DNA from: Eledone cirrhosa | Lineage: Eukaryota | NCBI GenBank assembly: GCA_964016885.1 | Contig: OZ024752.1 | Span: 25,358,001 to 25,422,000 of the forward strand | Length of the DNA: 64,000 bases | Direction of reading: 5' to 3' | Shown: piece by piece, positions 2,889 through 29,758 of the stretch | Layout: each line of letters starts with the position of its first letter | Position numbering within the stretch: the first letter of the stretch is position 1 | Position numbers and translations under genes: made by a program | The notes under the pieces: model-generated | Told to the model about the DNA's origin: nothing | The model's database searches: none | Seen by the model: the letters and a program-made list of their open reading frames with translations, nothing else

Positions 2889-2925
<37 letters not shown>

Positions 2926-3021
2926 AATCTATCTATATATATATATATACATAAATATATATATATATAAACATATATAAATATATATATATATATACAT
3001 AAATATATATATATATACATA

Positions 3022-3055
<34 letters not shown>

Positions 3056-3098
3056 CATAAATATATATATATATACATAAATATATATATATATATAT

Positions 3099-5289: not shown

Positions 5290-7978
5290 CTAATGGATAC
5301 AATTTATACTACTAGAACCTTTAGGTTTATAATAAAAGTAAGAATTAGAAATAGCGTGGGGGCAAGAAGAGAATATCTCAGACTTTCTATTAAGTAAGGA
5401 TTCACTAGAGAAAATTATAGAGTGTGTCTCGAGGATACAGAGATTACAAAATTTAGTATGTGTAGAAAGGTTATTAGAGCGTGCTACTAAACGCCAATTA
5501 AGGCTATATGGTATATTAGCCCCATTAAGATCCCAGATATAGTGTGCTAAAGAAGTAGAATTCTTAAACTTAACATGTTTGAAATTAGAGATATGAGAAT
5601 TAAACCTAGTCTTAAAAGTGTTAGATGTAGAGCCTATATAAGTTCTATTAGAGGAATTAACTATATATATAACTACGCAAGCATAGACGGTGTTCTTAGA
5701 GAGGCAGTTACCGTTTAAAGGGCAGTTAGCACTCACTCTACAGTTACACTTCCAGGTGCTATTGATTGGCTGAAGTAGTGATGCATTACACGTAGGATTA
5801 CTATTAGATAAGGTCTGCTCTGGTGGTAAGGTATTTACAGATCTGTTCAGACTAGTAGTATCTAGAGAGGAGTATCCATCCCTAATTTTCCTATTGTTAG
5901 TGCTAGCTAAATGAGAACTAATATTAGGGGTGGTAGAGAATGAAATTTAATAACATTTTTATTAAAAATACTATGGTATTTATGAGAAGGGGGGAAATTT
6001 TTCTCTAACATAGAAAAGAAAGACCTATGGATATTAGTTAATACTTCCTGATTATATGGCGGGTTAAAATATGTATTTAGTCTCCTTCTATTTTTATCCT
6101 TACCGACTCTACCATTATCTAATATCCCATTATTAAGACTAGGGTTATTACAAGGATTAGTTAAAACCGCATTATTAGAATCAGCCAAAATTCCATTAAG
6201 TCTCTTACTGTTTCTACGTCTAATAGATCTGCTGCCGTCTGGAATCCCATCAAAAGGATTAGGGCCAATAATAGGATCAGTAGAAACAACATTATTAGAA
6301 TTAGATCTAGCAAAATCATCACCAATGAGTGAGCGCTCAGAGGGTTCGACTTGTTTCCTAGAGGTATTATATTCCCTATTACGAGTCCGGTGGGTTAACT
6401 TATGGATGGGTTCAGATACACCTATGTAATTTCTACGGTTATTATGCTTCCCACTCCCATTCATGGCCATGTTATGTGATATTATGTTATTATTATTATA
6501 AGTAAGCAGAGACTTTCTAAGGTTACTATCATTATAATGTATTTTACTAGAGTAACCGGAATTAGCTAGGGCATTATTATAGTACTCCGCATGTTCATTA
6601 AATGTTCCTACGTCTTAGAGAGTGTGGAAATCCTATTAGATACACCCTTAATTATAGAGCTTATCATAGATTTGGGGTGGTTAGAATTGGGACTAACATA
6701 AGAAAGTATTTCATTAGGCTTATGGAAGGGTTTAAAACTATTAGTGACCAAGTCCAAAGTCACATCTAAAAAGTTGACCGCTCTATCGTTTCTATCTATC
6801 GTGATCGAAAGGTTATAGCTTTTAAAAAACTTATAAAGCTTCTTATTATGCTCGACATTGTTGGTGCTAGAGTTAATAACAAACAATGCATCATCACGAT
6901 ATAGTCCTCCATTAAGGTGCGGAAAGGTAACATATAGTTCATTTAGGAGGAACAACCCAACAAGATCAGTTACCTGGGCCGAATCACTCGAACCCATTGT
7001 AACGTCGAAATTGTTGGGCGTGTTTTTACGGGTCCAAAATGTGTCCTCAAAATTAATAATAGTTCTACGGGCTGCTAGTATAATATCTACCTGTGATCGT
7101 GTAAGGCTGGACACTCTCATGGCCAACAGTAAGGCTTTATTGAGGAGGATGGGTGAAATCGATGTGTAGTAGGCATCAATATCGAACTGGATAAACTTAT
7201 TAGATTCAAGTTTATTAATCCCAGAGAACCAATCTATAACTTCCTTAGTGTTCCCCCATAGGTTAAAATTAACTTTATCCCTAACATCTGGTATAATAAG
7301 GTCAAGGATTTTTTTACTGATTATGGCTATATCGGACTTAGAAGGACAGATGAGTCTAACAGAGGGGTTACTAATGAAGTCTACCTTATGATCCTTAAGA
7401 GTGAACCTCGGTTCTCTAGGGTAATATGGCTGGGTATACTTATCAAGGCCGAGATCCGAGACTATTTTAAGACCCTCACTATTGATATGGTTCAAATTAT
7501 CTAGCGTAGTCTTTTTATAATTTCTATGCAGCTCCTTATAAAAAAAAGTCACGGTAAGCACTGTAATCCATAGAGTATAGATTCTTAGTCTTATCCGCCG
7601 GGACAAGAATAGACTTATTCGCACTAAAACCCTTAACAATATTTTAAAGTCTAGACTGGAACTTATCAAATTTATTATAATTTCTATGTCGATTATTTGG
7701 CCTATACTTAATATTTTTGACAAGAGAGAGTAAGTCACTTTTAAAATTATCTAATCGAACGTTATGTGGTGGGCTCTTATAAGTTTTGAAGCCATAGTTA
7801 TTAAAATTTGTTCTATTCCTGGGGTCCTTCCTATTCCTATTATTATCATAGTGGAAAGCACGCCATCTAATCCTTTTTACAAAGGAGTTAACACTAGCAA
7901 TCAATAGTTTTTCGTAAGTATTCTTAGAGGGGTGGGAATATTCTTCAGAGATAAAAGCAGGTAACTCTTTGTTAGCAT
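5290..7978 (-). pseudogene. PLE reverse transcriptase plus GIY-YIG endonuclease, frameshifted
   Basis: Motifs SLKNIP, KRIRWRA, FTLKDHK, FDIDAYY, FDVTMGSSDSAQ, GGLYRDD, NFLDVTL, YFNPPY, CPLNGNC, YIGSTSNTFKTR and CNLCILE are spread over several frames. Confidence 0.92.
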
Positions 7979-9814: not shown

Positions 9815-9860
<46 letters not shown>

Positions 9861-10178
9861 CATAAATATATATATATATATATATACATAAATATATATA
9901 TATATATATACATAAATATATATATATATATACATAAATATATATATATACATATATATATATTTCGTTTCTGAATTTGTTTAGCAAGATTCTTTATCTG
10001 AAATCGTGTGTTGAAACCGATATTGTTATACTTTGGGAGGGTCATGTTGCCAATAAGAAACACACGCACCAGTTGCTTTCACTTCAATTTAATTTAATAT
10101 ATATTTATAAATTTACAAATTTATAAATTTCTGGTTGGTTGGTTGGTTCCACAACCAGATAGTTGTTTATATATATAT

Positions 10179-10223
10179 AGTCATAGTTCTTTCGTCACAC
10201 ACTCTGTGACCTCTTCAGTGACT
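10179..10223 (-). ncRNA. Type I hammerhead ribozyme (Naiad-A)
   Basis: Reverse complement of 10349-10393. Confidence 0.8.
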
Positions 10224-10348
10224 GGGGATTTCTTTCTTCGTTTCTGTGCCTTTCCTTTCTTCTATCCTACGCCATTTTGTTTGACACACAAACAAAATGG
10301 CGTAGGATAGAAGAAAGGAAAGGCACAGAAACGAAGAAAGAAATCCCC

Positions 10349-10393
10349 AGTCACTGAAGAGGTCACAGAGTGTGTGACGAAAGAACTATGACT
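10349..10393 (+). ncRNA. Type I hammerhead ribozyme (Naiad-A)
   Basis: agtca CTGAAGA g gtcac-agagtgt-gtgac GAAA gaac TA tgact. Confidence 0.8.
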
Positions 10394-10546
10394 ATATATA
10401 TATAAACAACTATCTGGTTGTGGAACCAACCAACCAACCAGAAATTTATAAATTTGTAAATTTATAAATATATATTAAATTAAATTGAAGTGAAAGCAAC
10501 TGGTGCGTGTGTTTCTTATTGGCAACATGACCCTCCCAAAGTATAA

Positions 10547-11437
<891 letters not shown>

Positions 11438-11662
11438 TAATTAAGTCAAAGATGTACATCCATATATGTATACTGAAATACTAGTATGTATATGAATACA
11501 CACACGTATACATATGTAGATGTACCAAGTTTTTTTTCACTGATCACTTTACTGTGAGTGGCCAGCTATTCTGTATGTAAACACACAGACAAACCGGTTT
11601 TTAGAGTCATACTGGTTTTTGAGGAAACACCTTTCCTCTATTCTCCAGAAAGCCAGACAAGG

Positions 11663-11707
11663 AATATTGAACTAGTTTCGTTGTTGTTACAACTCATCAG
11701 CAATATT
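11663..11707 (-). ncRNA. Type I hammerhead ribozyme, array unit
   Basis: Reverse complement reads aatattg CTGATGA gttg-taacaa-caac GAAA ctag TT caatatt. Confidence 0.9.
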
Positions 11708-12131
11708 TACCTATCTTCCGGCCTCTCTAGAGAATCGTAAAAGCACATATCGCTATATGCTTTTTCTATGAAAATTAGTAGTGGGCAGACCAACTTGCAT
11801 AGAGTGTGAGTAAGTACCGGTTCAACGGAGACGATAAAAACAAATAACGAAACGAAATTAAATTTCATTTCGTTTGTAACTCACTTTTGTATGACTGACG
11901 CTCAAACAATTAAGTCAAAGATGTACATCCATATATGTATACTGAAATACTAGTATGTATATGAATACACACACGTATACATATGTAGATGTACCAAGTT
12001 TTTTTTCACTGATCACTTTACTGTGAGTGGCCAGCTATTCTGTATGTAAACACACAGACAAACCGGTTTTTAGAGTCATACTGGTTTTTGAGGAAACACC
12101 TTTCCTCTATTCTCCAGAAAGCCAGACAAGG

Positions 12132-12176
12132 AATATTGAACTAGTTTCGTTGTTGTTACAACTCATCAGCAATATT
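12132..12176 (-). ncRNA. Type I hammerhead ribozyme, array unit
   Basis: Identical motif. Confidence 0.9.
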
Positions 12177-12601
12177 TACCTATCTTCCGGCCTCTCTAGA
12201 GAATCGTAAAAGCACATATCGCTATATGCTTTTTCTATGAAAATTAGTAGTGGGCAGACCAACTTGCATAGAGTGTGAGTAAGTACCGGTTCAACGGAGA
12301 CGATAAAAACAAATAACGAAACGAAATTAAATTTCATTTCGTTTGTAACTCACTTTTGTATGACTGACGCTCAAACAATTAAGTCAAAGATGTACATCCA
12401 TATATGTATACTGAAATACTAGTATGTATATGAATACACACACGTATACATATGTAGATGTACCAAGTTTTTTTTTCACTGATCACTTTACTGTGAGTGG
12501 CCAGCTATTCTGTATGTAAACACACAGACAAACCGGTTTTTAGAGTCATACTGGTTTTTGAGGAAACACCTTTCCTCTATTCTCCAGAAAGCCAGACAAG
12601 G

Positions 12602-12646
12602 AATATTGAACTAGTTTCGTTGTTGTTACAACTCATCAGCAATATT
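12602..12646 (-). ncRNA. Type I hammerhead ribozyme, array unit
   Basis: Identical motif. Confidence 0.9.
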
Positions 12647-13070
12647 TACCTATCTTCCGGCCTCTCTAGAGAATCGTAAAAGCACATATCGCTATATGCT
12701 TTTTCTATGAAAATTAGTAGTGGGCAGACCAACTTGCATAGAGTGTGAGTAAGTACCGGTTCAACGGAGACGATAAAAACAAATAACGAAACGAAATTAA
12801 ATTTCATTTCGTTTGTAACTCACTTTTGTATGACTGACGCTCAAACAATTAAGTCAAAGATGTACATCCATATATGTATACTGAAATACTAGTATGTATA
12901 TGAATACACACACGTATACATATGTAGATGTACCAAGTTTTTTTTCACTGATCACTTTACTGTGAGTGGCCAGCTATTCTGTATGTAAACACACAGACAA
13001 ACCGGTTTTTAGAGTCATACTGGTTTTTGAGGAAACACCTTTCCTCTATTCTCCAGAAAGCCAGACAAGG

Positions 13071-13115
13071 AATATTGAACTAGTTTCGTTGTTGTTACAA
13101 CTCATCAGCAATATT
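13071..13115 (-). ncRNA. Type I hammerhead ribozyme, array unit
   Basis: Identical motif. Confidence 0.9.
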
Positions 13116-13539
13116 TACCTATCTTCCGGCCTCTCTAGAGAATCGTAAAAGCACATATCGCTATATGCTTTTTCTATGAAAATTAGTAGTGGGCAGACCA
13201 ACTTGCATAGAGTGTGAGTAAGTACCGGTTCAACGGAGACGATAAAAACAAATAACGAAACGAAATTAAATTTCATTTCGTTTGTAACTCACTTTTGTAT
13301 GACTGACGCTCAAACAATTAAGTCAAAGATGTACATCCATATATGTATACTGAAATACTAGTATGTATATGAATACACACACGTATACATATGTAGATGT
13401 ACCAAGTTTTTTTTCACTGATCACTTTACTGTGAGTGGCCAGCTATTCTGTATGTAAACACACAGACAAACCGGTTTTTAGAGTCATACTGGTTTTTGAG
13501 GAAACACCTTTCCTCTATTCTCCAGAAAGCCAGACAAGG

Positions 13540-13584
13540 AATATTGAACTAGTTTCGTTGTTGTTACAACTCATCAGCAATATT
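13540..13584 (-). ncRNA. Type I hammerhead ribozyme, array unit
   Basis: Identical motif. Confidence 0.9.
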
Positions 13585-14192
13585 TACCTATCTTCCGGCC
13601 TCTCTAGAGAATCGTAAAAGCACATATCGCTATATGCTTTTTCTATGAAAATTAGTAGTGGGCAGACCAACTTGCATAGAGTGTGAGTAAGTACCGGTTC
13701 AACGGAGACGATAAAAACAAATAACGAAACGAAATTAAATTTCATTTCGTTTGTAACTCACTTTTGTATGACTGACGCTCAAACAATTAAGTCAAAGATG
13801 TACATCCATATATGTATACTGAAATACTAGTATGTATATGAATACACACACGTATACATATGTAGATGTACCAAGTTTTTTTTCACTGAAAAAAAAAAAA
13901 ACTTGGTACATCTACATATGTATACGTGTGTGTATTCATATACATACTAGTATTTCAGTATACATATATGGATGTACATCTTTGACTTAATTGTTTGAGC
14001 GTCAGTCATACAAAAGTGAGTTACAAACGAAATGAAATTTAATTTCGTTTCGTTATTTGTTTTTATCGTCTCCGTTGAACCGGTACTTACTCACACTCTA
14101 TGCAAGTTGGTCTGCCCACTACTAATTTTCATAGAAAAAGCATATAGCGATATGTGCTTTTACGATTCTCTAGAGAGGCCGGAAGATAGGTA

Positions 14193-14237
14193 AATATTGC
14201 TGATGAGTTGTAACAACAACGAAACTAGTTCAATATT
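14193..14237 (+). ncRNA. Type I hammerhead ribozyme, array unit
   Basis: aatattg CTGATGA gttg-taacaa-caac GAAA ctag TT caatatt. 7-bp stem I and palindromic stem III ACTAGT. Confidence 0.9.
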
Positions 14238-14661
14238 CCTTGTCTGGCTTTCTGGAGAATAGAGGAAAGGTGTTTCCTCAAAAACCAGTATGACTCTAAA
14301 AACCGGTTTGTCTGTGTGTTTACATACAGAATAGCTGGCCACTCACAGTAAAGTGATCAGTGAAAAAAAACTTGGTACATCTACATATGTATACGTGTGT
14401 GTATTCATATACATACTAGTATTTCAGTATACATATATGGATGTACATCTTTGACTTAATTGTTTGAGCGTCAGTCATACAAAAGTGAGTTACAAACGAA
14501 ATGAAATTTAATTTCGTTTCGTTATTTGTTTTTATCGTCTCCGTTGAACCGGTACTTACTCACACTCTATGCAAGTTGGTCTGCCCACTACTAATTTTCA
14601 TAGAAAAAGCATATAGCGATATGTGCTTTTACGATTCTCTAGAGAGGCCGGAAGATAGGTA

Positions 14662-14706
14662 AATATTGCTGATGAGTTGTAACAACAACGAAACTAGTTC
14701 AATATT
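14662..14706 (+). ncRNA. Type I hammerhead ribozyme, array unit
   Basis: Identical motif. Confidence 0.9.
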
Positions 14707-15130
14707 CCTTGTCTGGCTTTCTGGAGAATAGAGGAAAGGTGTTTCCTCAAAAACCAGTATGACTCTAAAAACCGGTTTGTCTGTGTGTTTACATACAGAA
14801 TAGCTGGCCACTCACAGTAAAGTGATCAGTGAAAAAAAACTTGGTACATCTACATATGTATACGTGTGTGTATTCATATACATACTAGTATTTCAGTATA
14901 CATATATGGATGTACATCTTTGACTTAATTGTTTGAGCGTCAGTCATACAAAAGTGAGTTACAAACGAAATGAAATTTAATTTCGTTTCGTTATTTGTTT
15001 TTATCGTCTCCGTTGAACCGGTACTTACTCACACTCTATGCAAGTTGGTCTGCCCACTACTAATTTTCATAGAAAAAGCATATAGCGATATGTGCTTTTA
15101 CGATTCTCTAGAGAGGCCGGAAGATAGGTA

Positions 15131-15175
15131 AATATTGCTGATGAGTTGTAACAACAACGAAACTAGTTCAATATT
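15131..15175 (+). ncRNA. Type I hammerhead ribozyme, array unit
   Basis: Identical motif. Confidence 0.9.
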
Positions 15176-15598
15176 CCTTGTCTGGCTTTCTGGAGAATAG
15201 AGGAAAGGTGTTTCCTCAAAAACCAGTATGACTCTAAAAACCGGTTTGTCTGTGTGTTTACATACAGAATAGCTGGCCACTCACAGTAAAGTGATCAGTG
15301 AAAAAAACTTGGTACATCTACATATGTATACGTGTGTGTATTCATATACATACTAGTATTTCAGTATACATATATGGATGTACATCTTTGACTTAATTGT
15401 TTGAGCGTCAGTCATACAAAAGTGAGTTACAAACGAAATGAAATTTAATTTCGTTTCGTTATTTGTTTTTATCGTCTCCGTTGAACCGGTACTTACTCAC
15501 ACTCTATGCAAGTTGGTCTGCCCACTACTAATTTTCATAGAAAAAGCATATAGCGATATGTGCTTTTACGATTCTCTAGAGAGGCCGGAAGATAGGTA

Positions 15599-15643
15599 AA
15601 TATTGCTGATGAGTTGTAACAACAACGAAACTAGTTCAATATT
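15599..15643 (+). ncRNA. Type I hammerhead ribozyme, array unit
   Basis: Identical motif. Confidence 0.9.
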
Positions 15644-16067
15644 CCTTGTCTGGCTTTCTGGAGAATAGAGGAAAGGTGTTTCCTCAAAAACCAGTATGAC
15701 TCTAAAAACCGGTTTGTCTGTGTGTTTACATACAGAATAGCTGGCCACTCACAGTAAAGTGATCAGTGAAAAAAAACTTGGTACATCTACATATGTATAC
15801 GTGTGTGTATTCATATACATACTAGTATTTCAGTATACATATATGGATGTACATCTTTGACTTAATTGTTTGAGCGTCAGTCATACAAAAGTGAGTTACA
15901 AACGAAATGAAATTTAATTTCGTTTCGTTATTTGTTTTTATCGTCTCCGTTGAACCGGTACTTACTCACACTCTATGCAAGTTGGTCTGCCCACTACTAA
16001 TTTTCATAGAAAAAGCATATAGCGATATGTGCTTTTACGATTCTCTAGAGAGGCCGGAAGATAGGTA

Positions 16068-16112
16068 AATATTGCTGATGAGTTGTAACAACAACGAAAC
16101 TAGTTCAATATT
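16068..16112 (+). ncRNA. Type I hammerhead ribozyme, array unit
   Basis: Identical motif. Confidence 0.9.
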
Positions 16113-16425
16113 CCTTGTCTGGCTTTCTGGAGAATAGAGGAAAGGTGTTTCCTCAAAAACCAGTATGACTCTAAAAACCGGTTTGTCTGTGTGTTTACAT
16201 ACAGAATAGCTGGCCACTCACAGTAAAGTGATCAGTGAAAAAAAACTTGGTACATCTACATATGTATACGTGTGTGTATTCATATACATACTAGTATTTC
16301 AGTATACATATATGGATGTACATCTTTGACTTAATTGTTTGAGCGTCAGTCATACAAAAGTGAGTTACAAACGAAATGAAATTTAATTTCGTTTCGTTAT
16401 TTGTTTTTATATATATATATATATA

Positions 16426-16810
16426 TGGAAAGTTATATTTAAATTGTTGGGTTACAACGAGTAAATATTTATAACTGATATAAAAGCACTCAACAAGTAT
16501 TTGGAGTATATTTACAATATTAAATAAATGGAAATTATATTTATAAAACCATATTTATTTCATTATATATATTTCAGGGATATCATATTAAAAATATGTT
16601 ATGCCTTCTTCAGACAAAATACAATATAAACAGTCTTATAAATGCAAGTCGATGTTGAAAGGGTATGTCGAATCTATCTATTTATAAGACTGTTTATATT
16701 GTATTTTGTCTGAAGAAGGCATAACATATTTTTAATATGATATCCCTGAAATATATATGATGAAATAAATATGGTTTTATAAATATAATTTCCATTTATT
16801 TAATATCGTA
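16426..16810. mobile_element. Fold-back remnant of Hydra-like family 5 3' end, with HHRs at 16560-16617 (minus) and 16706-16763 (plus)
   Basis: Matches 55808-56050. Arms turn near 16645-16680. Confidence 0.8.
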
Positions 16811-16821
16811 TATATATATAT

Positions 16822-18459
16822 ATTTATTAAAATAACAGATTAAAGTTTAAGCAAAGAATCGCTGCTTTCACCCTTAACGGGATCTTCTGAAACTAACAAA
16901 GTCAATCTGTAAACGCAGAAGTGGATATTTCAAAAAACGTTGCAACCGGAGGAAGACAGGAAGACGATACTTTGGTTCGTGGTAACGTTCGCTGGCAAAG
17001 AACGGGAAAAAACGAATAATACGTCATTAATAGGAGCGGTGAAAAACAATTACGCGCAAAGACAAAACCACGTTTATGGTATAAAAGAGGTCGTAGACTA
17101 ATGTTCTCTTAGGTGGTGCATAGAGACGTTCTCTGGCAATGAACGAAAAAACGAAGATAATAAGTCATATGTGGAGCGTAGAGAACAAAAGCACGCAAAG
17201 ACAAAACCACGTAAATGGTATAGCAGAAGTCGTAGACTAAAATTCTAACTAGGAGACCGCATGAATCTCCGCTACAGAGTTAAGAACAAAGTAAATAAAT
17301 ACAATACAGAAGTAATAGAAACAAATAAATACATACACGCAAACAGATACGTACATACACAAGCACACGCAAAACCTTACCGTAGGTATACAAAACCACG
17401 CACATATAAATATGTGTGTGTGTGTGTGCTTGTGTACAAATAAATAAATAATTATATAAACGTATATAAGTAAATAAATACGTACATAACAAGCGCACAC
17501 ACATACCTACATATAAATACACGAATGTTCGGAGACGTGAGTCAACTAAAACAAGAAGTACACATATACACACACCCACCATACGTACGAACCTGCATAC
17601 TCACTCGGACGCAAAACTCCCGTATACACATAGCCATAAATACCAGAATATGTAAAAATGATACGCCATAACAGTCAAATATACGGACGAGAAGGTATAC
17701 ATACCTTCACAAAACATATGGGTAATATATACTTACCTATGCAAATAAGTAAAGGAATAAACAAACATATACTTAGCTCCCACATCAAGACGTAAAATAT
17801 CCGCGTAAACATCGTGCAATTTATGTTTACAAGCCAAAATTGCCTCAGATTTTTTGTTTAAGATGTGGTCTGTGGCGTAGAGTATTTCCAGGGCCTCAGC
17901 GGCCCAGAGGTCACATGGTCTTTTATTTCCGTTATACGATCCAGCCCTAGCTAGGATCTCCCAGTGTAACTTATATTGGGTGTGGTTATCTTTTAGACTC
18001 CAGATATAAGCTGAAAGTGACGTCATATTCCTTCTCAGAGGGTAACGAAAAGAATGGGTATGCATGTAAAGACGCTGCTTGAAACTATTGGCGGTTAACC
18101 CTATGTAGGCCCTACGGGACGTGGGTGTTACAACCTTACACTTGTAGACAATGTTACTAGAGAGGCATTTCCCGGATAGGGAGCAATCAGCCCGATTCCT
18201 ACAATTACAGTTAGTACTAACTACAGGATTGCACGTCTTCCTACGGCTAGGTAGTTTAGCTAAATTTGAAGCTGTGATGTTATGTGCAAGGTTAGGAGTC
18301 GTAGAGTAAGAAATTTTAATAGTATTTCTATTAAAGATTTTACTATATTTATGTGTAGGGGGAAAATGCTTCGTAATAAGGGAAAGAAAGATCTTAGCTA
18401 ATGGTGTGGCCACCTCCATATTATATGGTGGGTTAAACCAACAAATGCGACGAGATCTA
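16822..18459 (-). mobile_element. Hydra-like PLE family 3, 5'-truncated (GIY-YIG domain plus 3' UTR)
   Basis: 17273-18459 is the reverse complement of about 62800-64000. Motifs WFNPPY and YIGLTANSFKQR. Confidence 0.92.
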
Positions 18460-18738
18460 ATACTCTGGTGGATGGAGTTAGCTATTTGCTGGATGCTTTC
18501 CATTGTGTTTTTCTCTAGTTCCTGACTGTTCTCTAGTGGGGGTGTCTTAACTACGATGTTTATATAATCAACGTAGCGGGAGTACATTATCAGGGTTAAG
18601 GGGTCTTCTAATTGTTCTTTAAGTTTAAGTTTAAGTCTACTGTCCCACCATACCATGAATAAGTTAGCTATGTCGCCTGCAATGCTAACACCAATGGCTG
18701 CTCCTTCCTCTTGGGCATATGTTTTTCCATTAAATTTG

Positions 18739-20094
18739 AAGAAAATGATTGTACATGCGGTAGGGGCCAGCATAAAACTAACCCTTAAGGAACATATGTT
18801 CAAATTTTATGGAAAAACATATGCCCAAGAGGAAGGAGCAGCCATTGGTGTTAGCATTGCAGGCGACATAGCTAACTTATTCATGGTATGGTGGGACAGT
18901 AGACTTAAACTTAAACTTAAAGAACAATTAGAAGACCCCTTAACCCTGATAATGTACTCCCGCTACGTTGATGATATAAACATCGTAGTTATGACACCCC
19001 CACTAGAGAACAGTCAGGAACTAGAGAAAAACACAATGGAAAGCATCCAGCAAATAGCTAACTCCATCCACCAGAGTATTAGAGTTACTATAGACTACCC
19101 AAGTAAACACCCCAACCATCGATTACCTGTACTAGACACAGAGCTCTGGTTAGATACCATTAATAATAAAAAACAAATCCTCCATTCCCATTATGCCAAA
19201 CCCATGACTTCCAAACATCTGATCCACCGAAACTCGGACGTTTCGGACCATACCAAAATCAACATACTGATTGCGGATTTGGTACGGGTGATGAGAAACG
19301 TGTCCCGCATGTGCAACCCCGAAGAACTAGAGAGACACATACAACACTTCATCCACCGTATGCAGTTCTCAGGCTACAATCAGAGAGATAAAATCAGAGT
19401 GTATAGAGGAGCCAGAACCAAATGGGAAAAAATGGTAAATAATGACATAAATGGGACCTGCCCCTTGTATAGGAGCAAATTTTGGAATAGAATAGAAAGA
19501 ACTAGGAACAAGGCTAATAGAATAAATTCATGGTATGATAGCAATAAATACCAGAGTGTAATGTTCATCGATACAACCCCTAGAGGTGAATTAGCTTACA
19601 AATTTAGAAGGGCCCTAAATAAACATAAACTCAATATTAAGATAGTAGAAAGACCAGGTACCTCCGTAAAAACACTCATTAGCAAGACATACCCTTTTCA
19701 AAGACCCTCATGTATAGATAAGAAATGTATAACCTGTAAAATAAGCACCCATATTAACTGTAAAACTAAAAATGTAGTGTATAGCATAAGATGTACCGAA
19801 GGACAATGTAGAGACAAAAATATAGTGTATATAGGTGAGACAGCTCGTAGTGTAGGGGAATGGATAAATGAACACTGGCGAGACCTTCAAGATAGTAAAG
19901 AATCATCTGTACTCTACCAACATGCTAAAATAGAACACAAGGGTAAATTAGAGAACATAGAAATAAAAATAGAATCTACACACAGAAAAGACGCAATGTT
20001 TAGACAAATTACAGAGGCAATAAACATAAAAGAATTACAACCAAAATTAAATAGAAAATATGAGTGGAACAGCAACATCACAACTTACAATTAA
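18739..20094 (+). CDS. 5'-truncated PLE RT/thumb/GIY-YIG polyprotein (open frame)
   Basis: [31 protein letters not shown], CxxxxCxxC linker and VVY...YIGETARS. The first ~28 codons of the tracked ORF come from the inverted arm. Confidence 0.85.
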   Translation, partial: KKMIVHAVGASIKLTLKEHMFKFYGKTYAQEEGAAIGVSIAGDIANLFMVWWDSRLKLKLKEQLEDPLTLIMYSRYVDDINIVVMTPPLENSQELEKNTMESIQQIANSIHQSIRVTIDYPSKHPNHRLPVLDTELWLDTINNKKQILHSHYAKPMTSKHLIHRNSDVSDHTKINILIADLVRVMRNVSRMCNPEELERHIQHFIHRMQFSGYNQRDKIRVYRGARTKWEKMVNNDINGTCPLYRSKFWNRIERTRNKANRINSWYDSNKYQSVMFIDTTPRGELAYKFRRALNKHKLNIKIVERPGTSVKTLISKTYPFQRPSCIDKKCITCKISTHINCKTKNVVYSIRCTEGQCRDKNIVYIGETARSVGEWINEHWRDLQDSKESSVLYQHAKIEHKGKLENIEIKIESTHRKDAMFRQITEAINIKELQPKLNRKYEWNSNITTYN

Positions 20095-20338: not shown

Positions 20339-20609
20339 AATATATAAACAACTATCTGGTTGTGGAACCAACCAACCAACCAGAAATTTATAAATTTATA
20401 AATTTATTATAAATTTATTATAATAAATTGAAGTGAAAGCAACTGGTGCGTGTGTTTCTTATTGGCAACATGACCCTCCCAAAGTGTATATATATACATA
20501 TATATATATATAAGTATGTACACGTACATACATATATGTATACAGACGTTCAGTAGTATGTATATATATATACATACATGCACACATATATATATGTACG
20601 TATGGATTC

Positions 20610-21126
20610 ACCGAACATTTATTACAATGCTCGGTGTGTTTGTAAACAAACAACCCGTATTATGCCGTAGTGTCAAGCAACCATTGTTGCTCGTTTGTTC
20701 AACACTGACAAAGGAACGCTGTACTCGTTTCAAGCTTATTAGCTACCACCAGCAACGTATACCTTCCTGCCCGATTGTTGAACATATATACTTACCTTAT
20801 GCATATTAACGTCTGAGTAGCCCAATTTGCATATCGAGTGGGTAAATCGGCCGGGTGTACCGAAAACGATAAACGGAAAAAATGAAACGAAATTTCATTT
20901 CCCACTCTTAGTACGGCTGTTACTTAAATATAATTATAAGTATAAGCCATTAATATGCATAAGGTAAGTATATACGTTCAACAATCTGGCAGGAAGGTAA
21001 ACGTTGCTGATGATAGCTTGAAACTAGTAGAGCGTTCCTTTGTCAGTGTTGAACAAACGAGCAACGATGGTTGCTAGACACTACGGCTTAATACGGGATG
21101 TTTGTTTACAAACACACCGAGCATTC
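20610..21126. mobile_element. Diverged fold-back relative of the 469-bp unit with decayed HHRs
   Basis: About 20625-20810 is an imperfect inverse of about 20950-21126. HHR remnant acgttg CTGATGA tagctt GAAA ctag TA gagcgt at about 21001-21036. Shares blocks such as acgataaa...aaacgaaatt...tcattt with the 469-bp unit. Confidence 0.7.
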
Positions 21127-23002: not shown

Positions 23003-23103
<101 letters not shown>

Positions 23104-23124
23104 CATATATATATATATATTTAT

Positions 23125-23633
23125 ATATTAGTTTAGCGAGGTTTTTTATATGAAATCGTGTATCGAAACAAATATTGTTATACTTGGGGAGGGTCATATT
23201 TTTGTAATATTGCCAGAATTAATAACAGAACACACTCACTGTTTGGTTGGTTTTCGCTTCTCGCTGTCTTTTATATCTGCGATCTAACTTAATCGGTCCT
23301 CAATGTTGTCATTGACTGACCGACGGTCAAAAATAATACAGATACAATATAGACACAAACACATATATATAGTTTACATAATTTACATAAATCTTTCGTT
23401 GCACATCTGCAACATCGTCAGTGGTGTTATATTTTTTCCTCCTGTTGTGTTGTATGTCTACGCCATTTTTTATTCAGTCTGTCTGACCGTCGGTCAGTCA
23501 ATGGCAACATTGAGGACCGATTAAGTTAGATCGCAGATATAAAAGACAGCGAGAAGCGAAAACCAACCAAACAGTGAGTGTGTTCTGTTATTAATTCTGG
23601 CAATATTACAAAAATATGACCCTCCCCAAGTAT

Positions 23634-23639
<6 letters not shown>
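23125..23639. mobile_element. Older fold-back remnant of Naiad-like family B pLTR (HHR 23384-23427 minus)
   Basis: Diverged match to 24635-24995. Turn near 23484. Confidence 0.85.
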
Positions 23640-23702
<63 letters not shown>

Positions 23703-23898
23703 GGGAGGGTCATATTTGCGTAATATTGCCAGAATTAATAACAGAACACACTCACTGTTTGGTTGGTTTTCGCTTCTCGCTGTCTTTTATATATATATAT
23801 CTGCGATCTAACTTACTCGGTCCTCAATGTTGCCATTGACTGACCGGCGGTCAAAAATAATACAGATACAATATAGACAAACACATATATATATAGTT

Positions 23899-23942
23899 TA
23901 CATAAATCTTTCGTTGCACATCTGCAACATCGTCAGTGGTGT
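23899..23942 (-). ncRNA. Hammerhead ribozyme (Naiad-B inverted arm)
   Basis: Reverse complement of the pLTR HHR. Confidence 0.7.
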
Positions 23943-24693
23943 TATATTCATTGTTCCTCCTGTTGTGTTGTATGTCTACGCCATTTTTTTTTGTTCAGTC
24001 TGTCTATATATTTATTTATTTATTTGCTTGTTTGTTTATCTTATTTTATTTTGTCTTCTTTGCGCATGCGTTTGCGTGTGTGTATAGTGTTATGTGTGAT
24101 GTGTGACTAGTGTGTATAGTGTTGTCTGCTGGGTGACTAGTGTGTGTTTATGTGCTTGTGTATGTATTTATTTATCTTATTTTATTTAATTTACTTTACT
24201 TATTTATTTATACTTCTCTTAGGTCAGTGTTGTTTGTTTGGGTGTTGTTGTTGTTCCACTCATTCTTTCTGTTTAGCTTTGGTCTTCTAATTTCTATTTC
24301 ACTGGCCTCTCTGATTTGCCTATCTGCTGGGTCATTCCTATGTTTAGATATTATTCTAATTTCTATGTTGTCTATGTTACCGTCATGGTGTTGTCTAGCA
24401 TGTTCGTATAGTACTGACCCGTTTTTTCGTCCTTTTAGTTCCCCCCAGTGTTGGTCTATCCTTTCACCTATGCTACGAGCTGTCTCACCTATGTATGTTG
24501 TTGTCGTGTTTCTGCAAGTACCCTCTGTACATCTTATGCTATAGACTACGTTTCTAGTTTTACAGTTTATCCGTAAAGAAGACAAAATAAAATAAGATAA
24601 ACAAACAAGCAAATAAATAAATAAATATATAGACAGACTGAACAAAAAAAAATGGCGTAGACATACAACACAACAGGAGGAACAATGAATATA

Positions 24694-24737
24694 ACACCAC
24701 TGACGATGTTGCAGATGTGCAACGAAAGATTTATGTA
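24694..24737 (+). ncRNA. Minimal hammerhead ribozyme (Naiad-B 5' pLTR)
   Basis: ca CTGACGA t gttgca-gatg-tgcaac GAAA gatt TA tg. Stem I is weak. Confidence 0.7.
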
Positions 24738-24922
24738 AACTATATATATATGTGTTTGTCTATATTGTATCTGTATTATTTTTGACCGCCGGTCAGTCAA
24801 TGGCAACATTGAGGACCGAGTAAGTTAGATCGCAGATATATATATATAAAAGACAGCGAGAAGCGAAAACCAACCAAACAGTGAGTGTGTTCTGTTATTA
24901 ATTCTGGCAATATTACGCAAAT

Positions 24923-25453
24923 ATGACCCTCCCCAAATATAACAATATCGGTTTCGACACACGATTTCATATAAAAAACCTCGCAAAACTAATTCATCGC
25001 CGCTATGGCATTAGCTTGTGCCAAGCTGAAAGGTTATTGAAAGACACTGTTTTCTGTTATATAAAAACTACAATAACAACAGAACAAATCCGCTTCTTAA
25101 AACACTGTGTTTCCTCCAAAACATACACAACAAACATATCAAAACAAGTAAATAATTTATTATTGAACAAAACACAAGCTGAACGGCTAAAACACACAAT
25201 AACAGTTAATATGAAAAGAACAACATACACAAAAGTCAACGCACTCTACAGACAAAAACGCATCAACGGTAAGGAAATCCGAAATCTCATCACAGCAAAC
25301 GAGAGAGATGACTTCATGAGCGTCATCCGACGCGAAACGAAATATGCTCAAAACGAATGCTGTAGGCATTTCAAGAAGAAATTAGAATGGATGAATAAAA
25401 AAGAAAAAACTACAAGAAAGGAAAATCGAATATTCTCAAAAATACCCAGATAA
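24923..25453 (+). CDS. PLE N-terminal basic domain (176 aa), probably the frameshifted start of the polyprotein
   Basis: [11 protein letters not shown] start is shared with Naiad-A. QIRFLKHC and KKKLEW resemble PLE N-termini. The frame of the next ORF is already open from about 25395. Confidence 0.75.
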   Translation: MTLPKYNNIGFDTRFHIKNLAKLIHRRYGISLCQAERLLKDTVFCYIKTTITTEQIRFLKHCVSSKTYTTNISKQVNNLLLNKTQAERLKHTITVNMKRTTYTKVNALYRQKRINGKEIRNLITANERDDFMSVIRRETKYAQNECCRHFKKKLEWMNKKEKTTRKENRIFSKIPR

Positions 25454-25469
25454 CATCGACAACATCCGT

Positions 25470-28400
25470 ATGAGTGATGTAAAACTACCGGAAGAATTTA
25501 CCAATGACCACACAGTAAATATCTATGGGAACACTTTAATCAGTGAACAAGAACAACAAATCCTAAAGTTACCACCAAAATTTGCCATCTACAAAAAGAT
25601 TAATCCTATGGAATGCAAAACGGAGCTGGAAAAGTGTTTCACAAAAATACGTTGGAATGCAAAGGTAAACAACAACAACAATAATAACGGTAGTAGTAAT
25701 ATAAACAATAACTCTGGGTATAGAAATAACAGCCATAACCATAACAATGGCAGGAAAGTGAGAAATAGTGATAATGGTAATAATACTAGCGATAGACAGA
25801 ACAACAACAACCACAATAATAATAATAATAGAAACGTTAACCACAGACACAGCAACAGTGACCACAGTAGTAATAACGGTAACAATACGAACAACAACAA
25901 CAACAATAACCACAGTGGTAATAATGGAAATAGTACATGTAGCAACATCAACAAAAACAAGAAACATAATAATAGTAACAACCACAATGGTAGAAATAGC
26001 AGTAACAACAACAATAACGGTGAAGTAAACAACAATACATCTAGCAATCATAACAATAATAATATTAATGCTAAGGATAGAAACAACAACAACCACCATG
26101 ATAACAATAATAGCAACACACACAACTATGACGATAGAAATAACGACAACCCCTTAGAGAAACTATTTTTCAACCCAGCTGACAAAACATATAAGATGGG
26201 TAATATCTATCCTACGAGGTTACCCTTTAATAAAAGAGTTTGCATACCACAACAAATAGATGACGAGACGGAGGCACAGTTCACCATAGCTAGAAATAAG
26301 ATTAGACAAGTAGTAGACAGGTACACTATGAGACAGAGCAGACCAGAGGCCCAACAACTTGGGATAAAACCTGTAGAAGGCTTGGTTAGCCTCAAGCAGC
26401 GCACAAGGGATGGTGAGGTAGTGTGTCTACCCACAGATAAGTCTGGTAGGATGTCAATAGATAGCATGCCGAACTACATCGAGGCAATGCAACCCCACAT
26501 CACCAACACGAGCGAAGTTGCACAACTAACACACGATGGGAGAGAAAAAATCCTCAACGCTCACATGATGATGTGGACTGACATCCTAAAGCCAAGCAGA
26601 CGCACTGCCAACAACTTCCAGGCGTCTAACAATGGCATACCACCCTTGTATGGGCTCCGCAAAGACCACAAGACAGTCGACGACCCGACAATAGGACCAC
26701 CAACAAGACCTGTATGCGGAGCTAATATAGCTAGCAACTACAGGATCTCCTACTTCCTCTCAATGGTTATACGCCCCATAATCAAGATGTCCCCAGATGT
26801 ATGTGAAAGTACAGAGGACCTCCTCAGCAGAATCAGTGAGTGCAACAAAAACAGGAGCCTATCCAACTGCATAATAGGCAGCATGGATGTGGTGTCACTG
26901 TACCCATCCATTAACATTGACTTTGCTGTGAAAAGATGTGTGGAGATGATCATTGAGAGTGAGGTGGAGTTCTGCGACGTCGACACAGACGAACTGGGCC
27001 TCCTACTTAGACTTACCTACGACACTGACTACCTAGACAGCCATGACCTTAGATGTTTCTGCCCTAGTAGACCTATAAGAGGTAGACCCCCCACCATAAC
27101 CTCAATGGCTAAAAAGACTCCCATAGGAAGGTGGATTGGGTGGACCAAAGCTATACGGACCCCCCAAAACACTGATCAGGTAAGAAAAATGGTCGCACAT
27201 GCAATAGGGGCTAGTATCAAAACTACCCTAAAGGGCCACATATTTAAGTTCAATGAGAAAATCTACACCCAAAATGAGGGAGCAGCCATCGGCGTCAGCA
27301 TAGCTGGCGATGTTGCCAACCTTTTCATGGTATGGTGGGAAAGGAGACTTAAAGATCTCCTTAATGAAAGCTCCATAGACCTCATCATGTACTCTCGTTA
27401 TGTAGACGATATCAATATAGTTATAAGAACACCCCCACTAGAGAGCACTAACAAGTTTGATTTAGAACGTAGCACGATGGAAAGCATCCAGCAGATAGCT
27501 AATTCCATACACCAGAGTATAACTGTAACTATAGACTTCCCTTCCAAACACCCTAACAATAGACTACCTGTATTAGACACAGAACTCTGGATTAACACTA
27601 TAGACGAGAGAGCCCAAATTCTCCACTCACACTATGCTAAACCCATGGCCTCCAAATACCTGATACTCAAAAACTCAGCAATGTCCAGTAGTGCTAAGTT
27701 TAATATTCTGATCGCAGATTTGGTACGAGTGATGAAGAATGTGTCCAGCATGTGCGACCCAACAGAAATGGAAGGACACATCCAACACTTCATCAACCGC
27801 ATGCAGTTCTCTGGCTACAACCAAAGAGACAGAGTCAGAGTATACGAAGGAGCCATGGAAAAGTATAAGACCCTCATAGAACTGGACATGAAAGGAATTT
27901 GCCCACTATACAGGAGCAAATCATGGAATAGCTTAGATAGGGCTAGACATAAGATAGGGAAGGCCACATCATGGTACGACAACCAGAGATATCAGAGTGT
28001 CATGTTTGTGGACGCCACCCCTGGAGGGAAATTAGCTAACCAGTGTAGAAAGGCCCTGAGAAAGACCCACTTAAAAATAAAGGTGGTAGAAAAGCCAGGA
28101 ACCACCATAAAATCCCTGATCAGCAAAACCTACCCTTTTAAGAAAACCCACTGTACCAATAGGAAATGTATCATATGTAAGGTGAACCCCCGGATAAACT
28201 GTAAAACTAGAAACGTAGTCTATAGCATAAGATGTACAGAGGGTACTTGCAGAAACACGACAACAACATACATAGGTGAGACAGCTCGTAGCATAGGTGA
28301 AAGGATAGACCAACACTGGGGGGAACTAAAAGGACGAAAAAACGGGTCAGTACTATACGAACATGCTAGACAACACCATGACGGTAACATAGACAACATA

Positions 28401-28556
28401 GAAATTAGAATAATATCTAAACATAGGAATGACCCAGCAGATAGGCAAATCAGAGAGGCCAGTGAAATAGAAATTAGAAGACCAAAGCTAAACAGAAAGA
28501 ATGAGTGGAACAACAACAACACCCAAACAAACAACACTGACCTAAGAGAAGTATAA
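25470..28556 (+). CDS. PLE reverse transcriptase plus GIY-YIG endonuclease (1028 aa, Naiad-like)
   Basis: LKLPPKFA, PTDKSG, YGLRKDHK, RPVCG, SMDVVSLYPSI, GAAIG, RYVDD, CxxxxCxxC and YIGETARSIGERIDQH, with no internal stop. Confidence 0.96.
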   Translation: MSDVKLPEEFTNDHTVNIYGNTLISEQEQQILKLPPKFAIYKKINPMECKTELEKCFTKIRWNAKVNNNNNNNGSSNINNNSGYRNNSHNHNNGRKVRNSDNGNNTSDRQNNNNHNNNNNRNVNHRHSNSDHSSNNGNNTNNNNNNNHSGNNGNSTCSNINKNKKHNNSNNHNGRNSSNNNNNGEVNNNTSSNHNNNNINAKDRNNNNHHDNNNSNTHNYDDRNNDNPLEKLFFNPADKTYKMGNIYPTRLPFNKRVCIPQQIDDETEAQFTIARNKIRQVVDRYTMRQSRPEAQQLGIKPVEGLVSLKQRTRDGEVVCLPTDKSGRMSIDSMPNYIEAMQPHITNTSEVAQLTHDGREKILNAHMMMWTDILKPSRRTANNFQASNNGIPPLYGLRKDHKTVDDPTIGPPTRPVCGANIASNYRISYFLSMVIRPIIKMSPDVCESTEDLLSRISECNKNRSLSNCIIGSMDVVSLYPSINIDFAVKRCVEMIIESEVEFCDVDTDELGLLLRLTYDTDYLDSHDLRCFCPSRPIRGRPPTITSMAKKTPIGRWIGWTKAIRTPQNTDQVRKMVAHAIGASIKTTLKGHIFKFNEKIYTQNEGAAIGVSIAGDVANLFMVWWERRLKDLLNESSIDLIMYSRYVDDINIVIRTPPLESTNKFDLERSTMESIQQIANSIHQSITVTIDFPSKHPNNRLPVLDTELWINTIDERAQILHSHYAKPMASKYLILKNSAMSSSAKFNILIADLVRVMKNVSSMCDPTEMEGHIQHFINRMQFSGYNQRDRVRVYEGAMEKYKTLIELDMKGICPLYRSKSWNSLDRARHKIGKATSWYDNQRYQSVMFVDATPGGKLANQCRKALRKTHLKIKVVEKPGTTIKSLISKTYPFKKTHCTNRKCIICKVNPRINCKTRNVVYSIRCTEGTCRNTTTTYIGETARSIGERIDQHWGELKGRKNGSVLYEHARQHHDGNIDNIEIRIISKHRNDPADRQIREASEIEIRRPKLNRKNEWNNNNTQTNNTDLREV
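25670..26150 (+). repeat. Cryptic AAC/AAT repeat encoding an Asn-rich tract
   Basis: About 160 codons dominated by N, in frame. Confidence 0.9.
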
Positions 28557-28822
28557 ATAAATAAGTAAAGTAAATTAAATAAAATAAGATAAATAAATAC
28601 ATACACAAGCACATAAACACACACTAGTCACCCAGCAGACAACACTATACACACTAGTCACACATCACACATAACACTATACACACACGCAAACGCATGC
28701 GCAAAGAAGACAAAATAAAATAAGATAAACAAACAAGCAAATAAATAAATAAATATATAGACAGACTGAACAAAAAAAAAATGGCGTAGACATACAACAC
28801 AACAGGAGGAACAATGAATATA

Positions 28823-28866
28823 ACACCACTGACGATGTTGCAGATGTGCAACGAAAGATTTATGTA
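28823..28866 (+). ncRNA. Minimal hammerhead ribozyme (Naiad-B 3' pLTR)
   Basis: Identical to 24694-24737. Confidence 0.7.
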
Positions 28867-29133
28867 AACTATATATATATGTGTTTGTCTATATTGTATC
28901 TGTATTATTTTTGACCGCCGGTCAGTCAATGGCAACATTGAGGACCGAGTAAGTTAGATCGCAGATATATATATATAAAAGACAGCGAGAAGCGAAAACC
29001 AACCAAACAGTGAGTGTGTTCTGTTATTAATTCTGGCAATATTACGCAAATATGACCCTCCCCAAATATAACAATATCGGTTTCGACACACGATTTCATA
29101 TAAAAAACCTCGCAAAACTAATTCATCGCCGCT

Positions 29134-29758
<625 letters not shown>

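Follow-up and report, generated by a model that had tools for sequence, protein, structure and literature searches.

The window analysed here, a 64,000-nucleotide stretch of Eledone cirrhosa DNA, contains an array of hammerhead-bearing repeats at 11439-16410 whose two arms point away from each other, and this raises the question of how such an inverted array is made. A preliminary description of the locus had proposed that a Penelope-like element (PLE) reverse-transcribed a circular RNA and that the cDNA then folded back to prime its own second strand. We find that the array is one of more than 2,000 insertions of a non-coding parasitic element, and that the palindromic form is the rule of this family and not a rarity. 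The array probably dates from one recent insertion of a non-LTR retrozyme that is non-autonomous and was mobilised by a PLE RT/GIY-YIG protein.

Anatomy of the array

The array comprises about 10.5 units of 469 bp with a GC content of about 0.35, and phases are numbered from the first base after GUU (Table 1). TRF reported 99% matches in both arms, the arms are reverse complements of each other at 99.8%, and the sole difference between the eight full units that were aligned is one A-run, in agreement with the head-to-head palindrome first described. No stop-to-stop frame of at least 150 aa lies within the array, which is thus devoid of the RT plus GIY-YIG ORF of an autonomous PLE, and its units are non-coding as had been claimed. 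Both array ends adjoin (TA)n and the ribozyme strands face outward, again as initially read.

Table 1. Coordinates of the array and neighbouring features in the window
Feature	Position	Strand	Remarks
Left (TA)n-type target flank	10549..11438		
Left arm	11439..13889	-	TRF period 469, 5.2 copies (5.23 units); RNA-sense 3' end at phase 231 (P site), 5' end at phase 127
Inversion centre	13884..13893	.	10-nt loop flanked by T8 run and expanded A13 run
Right arm	13894..16410	+	TRF period 469, 5.4 copies (5.37 units); 5' end at phase 133, 3' end at phase 305 (D site)
Right (TA)n target flank	16411..16426		
Hammerhead cores CTGATGAG, n=5	11693, 12162, 12632, 13101, 13570	-	Region 11647..13595
Hammerhead cores CTGATGAG, n=5	14200, 14669, 15138, 15606, 16075	+	
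First type I hammerhead	14182..14253	+	Rfam HH9 match, 37.7 bits (gathering score 52), E 9e-8
Predicted cuts	~11670, 12139, 12609, 13078, 13547	-	Placed by symmetry from unit identity
Predicted cuts	after 14230, 14699, 15168, 15636, 16105	+	GUU triplet ends at 14230
Monomer, cut site to cut site	14231..14699	+	469 nt
Tail segment, phases 225-310	14455..14540	+	Contains both end sites and a 13-bp hairpin
Array-fixed C>T variant, phase 272	14502	+	In all 11 copies, both arms
Second, distantly related retrozyme family	20494..21125	-	Head-to-head copy; homologous tail and hammerhead
Autonomous-type PLE	23695..29135	+	RT and C-terminal GIY-YIG; separate from the array
PLE frame	25395-28556	+	1053 aa

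The family ends at two fixed sites

We searched the genome for other arrays and recorded phase, TA flank and inversion, the check that the preliminary description had called for. This revealed a dispersed, multi-locus, mobile retrozyme family with at least 2,057 exact D ends adjoining TA and, in the young subfamily, 59 exact P ends that also adjoin it, and with subfamilies 86-100% alike. A head-to-head pair of arms was present in 105 of the 149 sequences examined, and several of the other 44 had a tiny second arm. Duplicates (L078 of L077, L111 of L110) were dropped and L052 was joined to L031 before counting. With the P end defined as phase 228-237 and the D end as phase 295-306, 87 of 96 complete two-armed insertions combined one P with one D end, nine had one eroded or other end, and neither P+P nor D+D occurred. 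Loci selected on a D end had P (55) or an end of another kind (8) at the free end and never D, loci selected on a P end had D (26) or an end of another kind (1) and never P, and all five internally selected loci were P+D. TA-rich DNA followed 182 of 192 P or D ends, a count to be read in the light of most loci having been selected on one TA-abutting end; in such (TA)n a target-site duplication is unreadable.

The two fixed end phases are the two-start-site 'tail' signature of PLEs. The preliminary description had correctly noted that the ends of this array lie at different phases (231 and 305), but these are not an incidental feature of one locus, as they are two fixed sites family-wide. The tail segment varies least of any part of the unit between subfamilies, with changes in 5 of 86 columns of the eight consensuses versus 13-29% elsewhere, and is a candidate site for protein binding and priming.

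Library amplification is known to generate perfect long palindromes as artefacts, palindromes are numerous in the window, and the centre of this locus rests on assembly sequence. Even so, we consider it most improbable that the array arose in assembly or from chimeric reads, or that it is a satellite which a rearrangement of the DNA has inverted: the inversion halts exactly at element-specific sites and excludes the flanks, the P+D combination recurs at 87 loci on many contigs and across the subfamilies, and the centres carry microhomology and inserts.

Copies within an array probably share one template

Variants fixed throughout an array (counted after L037 had been combined with L036, and without L059) comprised 21 A>G against 5 T>C (p 0.001), versus 28 against 33 among copy-private variants. 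This bias depends on a small number of loci: the array-fixed A>G changes came from 11 loci and the T>C changes from 5, with 7 of the 21 A>G in L118. In L044, both A70G and A121G were found in 14 of 14 copies in both arms, and no other match with both changes was found among the 40 of 435 candidates that were scored. The presence of these changes in every copy suggests that one RNA monomer, probably a circle, was copied repeatedly. The copy-wide changes resemble RNA editing, with ADAR-like A>G; the bias could also come from selection for pairing, array-fixed C>T (9) likewise exceeding G>A (2).

No fixed difference between arms was seen in 81 of 82 pairs compared. Substitutions per unit in the young subfamily were 0.53 within arrays versus 4.23 between arrays, with 30 haplotypes in 45 arrays; in older subfamilies the two values were closer (e.g. 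3.0 versus 7.6, and 5.2 versus 6.2). The phase-272 T in 11 of 11 copies at this locus, together with the A>G-biased array-fixed variants of the family, supports the repeated copying of one monomer that was proposed at the outset. This T has 29 exact matches in the assembly, 11 of them here and the other 18 as singles or pairs at a CpG, so that to call it unique in the genome would be too strong. It is absent from every other long array of the assembly, and no donor with it in all units was found there.

The template could instead have been linear, with PLE two-site priming on an uncut multimeric transcript of a homogeneous donor and the hammerhead incidental. One common master haplotype in 15 of 45 long arrays, intact cut-site seams (536 of 551 copies, also in line with the circle) and the multi-unit periodicity of L050 and L087 agree with this, as do symmetric stops, which would fit run-off at a shared 5' end. 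A hammerhead weak in helix III may also cut poorly, and in PMC11167929 unprocessed RNA was the main substrate. We nonetheless judge a linear template to be decidedly unlikely: independent editing of units would not put an identical pair of A>G changes into 14 of 14 copies, and the assembly holds no all-unit phase-272 T donor, which another haplotype or loss could explain.

Centres and arm lengths argue for two priming events

Under fold-back, the D-site cDNA would copy itself, an endonuclease or a short P-primed cDNA would resolve the P end, and later deletions would break the symmetry. Self-priming of this kind has been proposed for PLE head-to-head repeats (PMC3846280), and variants shared by both arms fit it equally well. 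This locus has a symmetric centre (phases 127 and 133), arms that differ by 66 nt and a 10-nt loop at the T8 and A13 runs, and fold-back here is possible. Near-symmetric centres were found at 9 of 105 loci (4.7 expected, p 0.046), and arm lengths were weakly correlated (rho 0.29). However, arm lengths fit the fold-back rule at 6 of 96 loci and failed it at the other 90, and the inner-end arm was more than 100 bp longer than the other at 31 of 96. Mutation-free young arrays are already grossly unequal (15.3 and 0.4 units in L050, 9.8 and 2.8 in L054). Symmetric centres occurred at 6 of 45 young versus 3 of 60 older loci, a difference of the sign that decay would produce which still leaves them well short of a majority, and among them three had loops of 0-2 nt and one, L156, had a 65-nt foreign insert that matched no RNA family.

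D-arm 5' ends pile up near the P site: of the 73 arms that exceed one unit, 30 have theirs at phases 205-305 (p 1e-4, for an interval chosen after the data had been viewed). The arms of L059 are of different subfamilies, with a switch from c4 to c3 and a 22-nt deletion within one arm. Microhomology of at least 2 nt was present at 37 of 82 insert-free junctions, versus 18% expected. Fold-back second-strand synthesis, the preliminary proposal for this locus, thus finds no support as a general route, for which we think it unlikely, and two priming events, one per target strand, account better for the arrays. Fold-back may still be the joining route in the symmetric minority, including this locus.

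In L1 twin priming, reportedly described by Ostertag and Kazazian, two target-strand primers give an inverted and a forward arm with junction microhomology. The second L1 primer pairs with a linear poly(A) RNA at internal positions that vary. The array resembles such products in its inverted and forward arms and its junction microhomology, but its second site is fixed, 70-74 nt from the first, and both arms are several template lengths long.

Hammerhead and monomer RNA

The preliminary description had assigned one type I hammerhead to each unit, and this is upheld by ten cores, the HH9 match, an intact core and a compensatory change in helix II. The HH9 match lies below the gathering score, and an Rfam scan at that score returned nothing for the array. 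Helix III is one A-U pair closed by a palindromic CUAG loop, a dimer-type form, and modelled hammerhead folding energies are +0.8 kcal/mol for the active monomer, -6.8 for the misfolded monomer and -17.2 for the dimer. The monomer is predicted to fold into a branched structure (-154.5 kcal/mol, z = -10), with 99.3% of cells paired across the family. Six pairs show double changes, including helix II (U-A to A-U), a count of sequences and not of events that 32 of 500 shuffles also reach. The catalytic core is invariant except for one base in 1 of 37 units. Arm 5' ends showed no significant enrichment at the ribozyme cut site, with 15 of 210 falling in phases 1-25 (p 0.15), and run-off there was discarded as the cause of arm stops. 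Only 1 of 9 tested retrozyme dimers cleaved in 10.64898/2026.07.22.740005.

Sequencing runs listed with part of the unit amounted to 20 rows from 17 studies, none recorded as RNA. Run X1 had the unit at very high depth and is possibly the source sample, hence not independent; it has TA loose ends at 14461 and 14535. Runs X4 and X9 gave single unit-length looped contigs at a depth of about 10, without flanks, and X5 gave fragments. The looped contigs were rejected as a sign of circles or horizontal spread, since a tandem repeat assembles likewise and carry-over is possible.

Proposed mechanism

We propose the following course of events as the likely one. Read-through array transcripts would be cut to monomers by dimer hammerheads and ligated to 469-nt circles, in which a lone hammerhead would be nearly inactive, as the anatomy and PMC7229834 suggest. 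The circles would gather RNA-level changes, some with the ADAR-like A>G signature seen here, which editing may have caused. A PLE protein, probably as a dimer, would bind the conserved tail segment and cut both strands of (TA)n, and cDNA would be primed from both free 3' ends at phases of about 305 and 231-236, by the priming described in PMC11167929. Each RT would circle the same monomer for 0.1 to more than 15 turns and give both arms the template's private changes. The cDNA ends would be joined at the centre through the 1-4-nt microhomology or short inserts observed there, to give a head-to-head product whose RNA 3' ends both face outward. The two arms of the present array halted at a near-equal phase and turn, which a shared template break or stop or a fold-back join would explain. 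The single-event insertion of the whole array that was first proposed is supported.

We give somewhat less than even odds to the further reading that each array is the recording of one circular RNA, copied both ways by a PLE dimer with one fixed start per target strand. If this reading is correct, the arrays document directly, in genomic sequence, that an animal circRNA underwent rolling-circle reverse transcription, ADAR-type edits enter the germline by rolling-circle copying, and PLE head-to-head inversion is fixed-site twin priming and not self-priming. If the A>G changes are edits, circles carry RNA editing into heritable DNA. The family supplies more than 2,000 natural products in which the 469-nt unit serves as a ruler along each arm, and these allow start sites, stop sites, the identity of the template and template switches to be tallied. 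The family bears on two published proposals for which we found no direct support, PLE copying of retrozyme circles and PLE head-to-head repeats with a one-ended tail; it tests how PLE inversions arise, and yields a cis element of 86 nt together with a short structured RNA usable in vitro.

Relation to known elements

The array resembles metazoan non-LTR retrozymes (newt satellite 2, axolotl Rtz331; PMC7229834, 10.64898/2026.07.22.740005) in its tandem non-coding repeats a few hundred bp long, GC of 35% (below 50% in the class), highly paired monomer, dispersed copies and the presence of PLEs in the genome. It also shares with them a single type I hammerhead in each unit, whose 1-bp helix III and palindromic tetraloop are as in HHR_Amex1. 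The non-LTR class assigned at first inspection therefore stands, with dispersed 469-bp tandem units each bearing a type I hammerhead, and a plant-type LTR retrozyme is excluded by type I topology and tandem monomers, versus type III hammerheads in LTRs with PBS and PPT. The unit had been called large for its class, which is true only marginally (150-450 in PMC7229834; 51-972 in 10.64898/2026.07.22.740005). The accessible text of these two sources describes retrozymes head-to-tail only, whereas the array is head-to-head, and does not report the fixed ends, tail or edit-like array-fixed variants of this family. The latter source ties retrozymes to PLE pLTRs by sequence and suggests local tandem amplification; in contrast, we found no homology of the unit to the pLTR of the PLE in the window or in 527 kb of masked loci, and the arrays here look ready-made at insertion.

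EN+ PLE insertions (PMC3846280, PMC8557442, PMC11167929) are, like the array, head-to-head with a tail at one end only, lie in microsatellite or AT-rich targets and have two start sites downstream of the hammerhead. The array differs in being without an ORF, in its tail of 70-74 nt and not 30-40, and in its arms, which are multimers of a small unit; the one-site-per-end count and the centre asymmetry are not given for EN+ PLEs in the accessible text. In PMC11167929 a PLE protein, predicted to be a dimer, cuts and extends both strands and initiates at a pair of internal sites that delimit the tail. Two results of that study count against our reading: start sites did not differ between the strands, and cleavage was unnecessary for insertion in vitro. 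Chlamys PLEs such as MRC1 (PMC8557442) are also non-autonomous passengers with multicopy insertions, but are head-to-tail, similar to autonomous 3' ends, and belong to a clade without canonical hammerheads.

Our literature search, to which most subscription papers and supplements were external, found no report of inverted retrozyme arrays, PLE twin priming or retrozyme edits; supplementary figures of PMC7229834 (S9 model) and 10.64898/2026.07.22.740005 could bear on this. Like the preliminary description, we found no report of the palindromic array for retrozymes, but autonomous PLEs are known to form head-to-head inversions (PMC3846280, PMC8557442). We read the array as a non-LTR retrozyme in a form for which we found no description.

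A neighbouring PLE shares the two-end geometry

The PLE in the window has the same head-to-head two-end geometry as the array, with ends equivalent to 29070 and 29135. Pfam barely recognises PLE proteins; the nearest relative of this one is named Octopus vulgaris (68% identity), and the label of cephalopod retrozyme given earlier is plausible, not proven. The two fixed 3' ends, head-to-head inversion and AT-rich target support a PLE as mobiliser, as had been suggested, and this neighbour is a candidate. Of the apparent PLE-retrozyme fusions only one stood: L077 and L078 share both flanks and represent a single ambiguous event in which two proximal ends are joined, perhaps by a deletion between neighbours. 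L112 was rejected as an inverted duplication of flank, and L139, L162 and L174 as nested neighbours. We fetched 20 copies of the neighbouring PLE family, of which 6 were cut off and 4 single-armed; distal and proximal ends were paired in 9 of the 10 resolved two-armed copies, two of which share a junction and may be duplicates.

Array structure and family membership

The two arms of the array are 99.8% identical as reverse complements, and a single A-run is the sole difference among eight aligned units. With phase 1 of the unit set at the base directly after the GUU at 14230, the left arm terminates at phase 231 and the right arm at phase 305, each adjoining (TA)n. The ribozyme strands of both arms are directed outward from the centre, where phase 127 meets phase 133 over a 10-nt loop. 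These results uphold the structure given in the preliminary description. The array is a real structure: an assembly artefact is unlikely because the inversion stops at element-specific sites, the flanks are left out of it, and one rule holds at 87 loci. Contigs from sequencing run X1, which may derive from the source sample, have TA loose ends at both end sites.

Features in the window and, where a locus is named, elsewhere in the genome
Feature	Coordinates	Details
Left array	11439-13889	469-bp period, 5.2 copies (TRF)
Right array	13894-16410	469-bp period, 5.4 copies (TRF)
Neighbouring PLE	23695-29135	RT, Asn-rich N-terminal stretch, C-terminal GIY-YIG; frame break near start
PLE copy, locus L077	~2820-6870	1183-aa frame without stops
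Short palindromic inserts (many)	227-626, 3096-3463, 9815-10749, 16507-16816, 18456-19083, 23075-23699, 56488-57466	Inserts at 18456 and 23075, at minimum, are PLE pieces
Second retrozyme family	20494-21125	
Second retrozyme family, other loci	L042 918-1878; L056 19-655; L039 9685-9887; L079 295-502	
Hammerhead-like cores	8227 and 35299 (-)	Minimal type, adjoining copies of second PLE family
Hammerhead-like cores	40565 (-) and 41004 (+)	Long-helix-II type, inverted pair
Decayed frames	48322-51921 and 58870-61349	Presumably LINE-type (endonuclease and RT), and a GIY-YIG fragment

Every unit carries a hammerhead of type I, matched by HH9 at 37.7 bits (E 9e-8), below the gathering score; its helix III consists of a single A-U pair capped by the palindromic loop CUAG. 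The accessible text of PMC4209133 and PMC7229834 describes this form as weak as a monomer and active as a dimer, and the predicted folding energies agree with that description: -17.2 kcal/mol for the dimer against +0.8 for the active and -6.8 for the misfolded monomer. In a set of 37 units drawn from subfamilies 86-100% alike, only one unit departed from the catalytic core, at one base; the units had GUU or GUC as cut triplet, and helix II showed a double change from U-A to A-U. The monomer fold was much more stable than shuffled controls (z -10). In the whole-unit fold 99.3% of cells pair, with double changes at 6 pairs; 0/500 shuffles matched the cell count and 32/500 the 6-pair count, both comparisons being inflated by kinship of the units.

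The unit forms a large dispersed family: the 3.0-Gb genome holds 987 candidate matches to it. Exact-pattern counts beside TA gave 2,057 phase-305 ends and 59 phase-231 ends of the youngest subfamily. We examined 100 of the former, every one on contig 1, 48 of the latter, including that of the window, and 10 arrays picked by an internal segment; after overlap of the three sets, the final table held 149 sequences. On the features testable in sequence, the array corresponds to a metazoan non-LTR retrozyme with a putatively self-cleaving hammerhead, and the class initially proposed was correct.

Two fixed end sites shared with PLEs

The two-armed head-to-head form was found in 105 of the 149 sequences, nine of which ran off the fetched sequence. 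Among the 96 complete loci, 87 paired one end at phase 228-237 (P) with one at 295-306 (D), none had like ends (P+P or D+D), and nine had one eroded or other end. The free end was P in 55, other in 8 and D in 0 of the loci selected by a D end; D in 26, other in 1 and P in 0 of those selected by a P end; and internally selected loci were P+D in 5/5. Several apparently single-armed loci had a second arm of 6-20 nt with the opposite end type. The preliminary description had missed both the fixed nature of the end sites and the fact that insertions of this family are normally palindromic. The unit is best conserved in the stretch bounded by the two sites.

The ends of the neighbouring PLE are arranged alike: they lie ~200 and ~270 nt behind the hammerhead-like motif of this element and are separated by 57-65 nt. 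We counted 1,233 distal ends for the PLE family and, among 20 copies fetched, distal was paired with proximal in 9/10 of the resolved two-armed ones. The P/D end pattern is the PLE tail. According to the accessible text of PMC11167929, a PLE protein in vitro cuts and extends both target strands, starting at two internal sites that agree with the genomic tail ends. The shared geometry and these two-site starts strongly indicate that the retrozyme family is mobilised by PLE machinery, the mobiliser originally suggested. No sequence common to the unit and PLEs was found in the window PLE and masked loci (527 kb), and no clean PLE-retrozyme chimera occurred among the loci examined. The closest relative of the PLE protein is, by name, from Octopus vulgaris (68%). 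The window is crowded with elements that target TA.

The head-to-head form and tail, already known in autonomous PLEs, are likewise present in this retrozyme family. In the literature, as far as its text was accessible, neither feature was described for retrozymes, and we met no account of a strict one-site-per-end rule or of array-wide fixation of edit-like changes.

A probable single template molecule per insertion

Of the arm pairs, 82 were compared and 81 lacked a fixed inter-arm difference, and private variants were common to many pairs. In the young subfamily, substitutions per unit comparison numbered 0.53 within arrays vs 4.23 between them; its 45 long arrays comprised 30 haplotypes, the master haplotype occurring in 15. 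At this locus a phase-272 T is present in all 11 copies; elsewhere in the genome it was hit 18 times, singly or in pairs. The single-event origin first put forward is supported.

Array-fixed variants were strand-biased (A>G 21 vs T>C 5, p 0.001; 11 vs 5 by locus, with the retrozyme locus L118 supplying 7 changes), whereas copy-private changes were not (28 vs 33). Array-fixed C>T also exceeded G>A (9 vs 2), and selection in favour of changes that G-U pairing tolerates may therefore play a part. U was the 5' neighbour at 10/21 A>G sites vs 46/147 in the background, in agreement with the 5'-neighbour preference of ADAR. Whether through editing or selection, the bias is bound to the ribozyme strand. 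At another locus, L044, A70G and A121G are present in 14/14 copies across both arms, and no other match among the 40 scored of 435 candidates had both. Fixation in all copies needs a one-unit bottleneck. The cut-site seam was intact in 536/551 copies and arm 5' ends of two-armed loci were not enriched at the cut site, which makes a circle likelier than jumps from one linear monomer to the next. The template may instead have been an unprocessed transcript from a homogeneous donor array that was not seen.

Separately, L118 has seven A>G changes fixed in every one of its 2-3 copies and looks like the product of a hyper-edited template. Variants in L050 and L087 are periodic over several units (6 in L050), which suggests that the template was multimeric or that units were duplicated in tandem later.

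Joining of the two arms

Simple fold-back second-strand synthesis, the route initially proposed, predicts symmetric centres and arm lengths ~72 nt apart. Centres were symmetric in 9/105 loci (chance expectation 4.7) and the length rule held in 6/96, the P arm being >100 bp longer in 31/96; the family's palindromes mostly do not arise by fold-back. Arms were already very unequal in young arrays without mutations. D-arm stops favoured phases 205-305 around the P site (30/73 among arms exceeding one unit in length; p 1e-4 for a window set post hoc), with no such preference in P arms (15/65). Microhomology of at least 2 nt was in excess at centres (37/82 vs 18% expected), 23 centres had inserts, and within one of its arms L059 (3344-7472) changes from subfamily c4 to c3, with 22 nt deleted from the tail hairpin. 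The unequal arms, D-arm stops, centre features and switch fit a cDNA from each target strand, the two being joined end to end.

Three points count against two primers. The array studied here is itself symmetric, and its loop would permit fold-back; symmetric centres were somewhat commoner in the young subfamily (6/45 vs 3/60); and start sites in vitro were alike on both strands (accessible text of PMC11167929). Self-priming was put forward for PLE head-to-head repeats in the accessible text of PMC3846280, which leaves the question open. For this locus alone we consider two primers with a common stop the more probable origin, and a fold-back join the less probable one.

Further products and a second family

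At L156 a 65-nt GC-rich foreign insert (570-634) without an Rfam match lies at the centre, and both flanking arms stop at phase 14. L066 (~707-790) carries at its far end four tandem repeats of a D-end piece of ~11 nt plus TA, possibly from repeated abortive priming, telomerase-like, or slippage. Flanking DNA next to the insertions in L112 and L038 is in inverted duplication, possibly another outcome of second-strand priming.

The second retrozyme family, with 2,414 candidate genomic matches, is a distant homologue of the array unit in its tail and hammerhead (nhmmer E as low as 8e-16). It too has the palindromic helix III and occurs in head-to-head copies, and its D end, homologous to that of the array unit, likewise abuts TA. 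The array unit was also present at depth ~10 in runs X4, X5 and X9, labelled as other organisms, and in X4 and X9 formed a single looped unit-length contig without flanks; this may reflect carry-over, diet or real spread.
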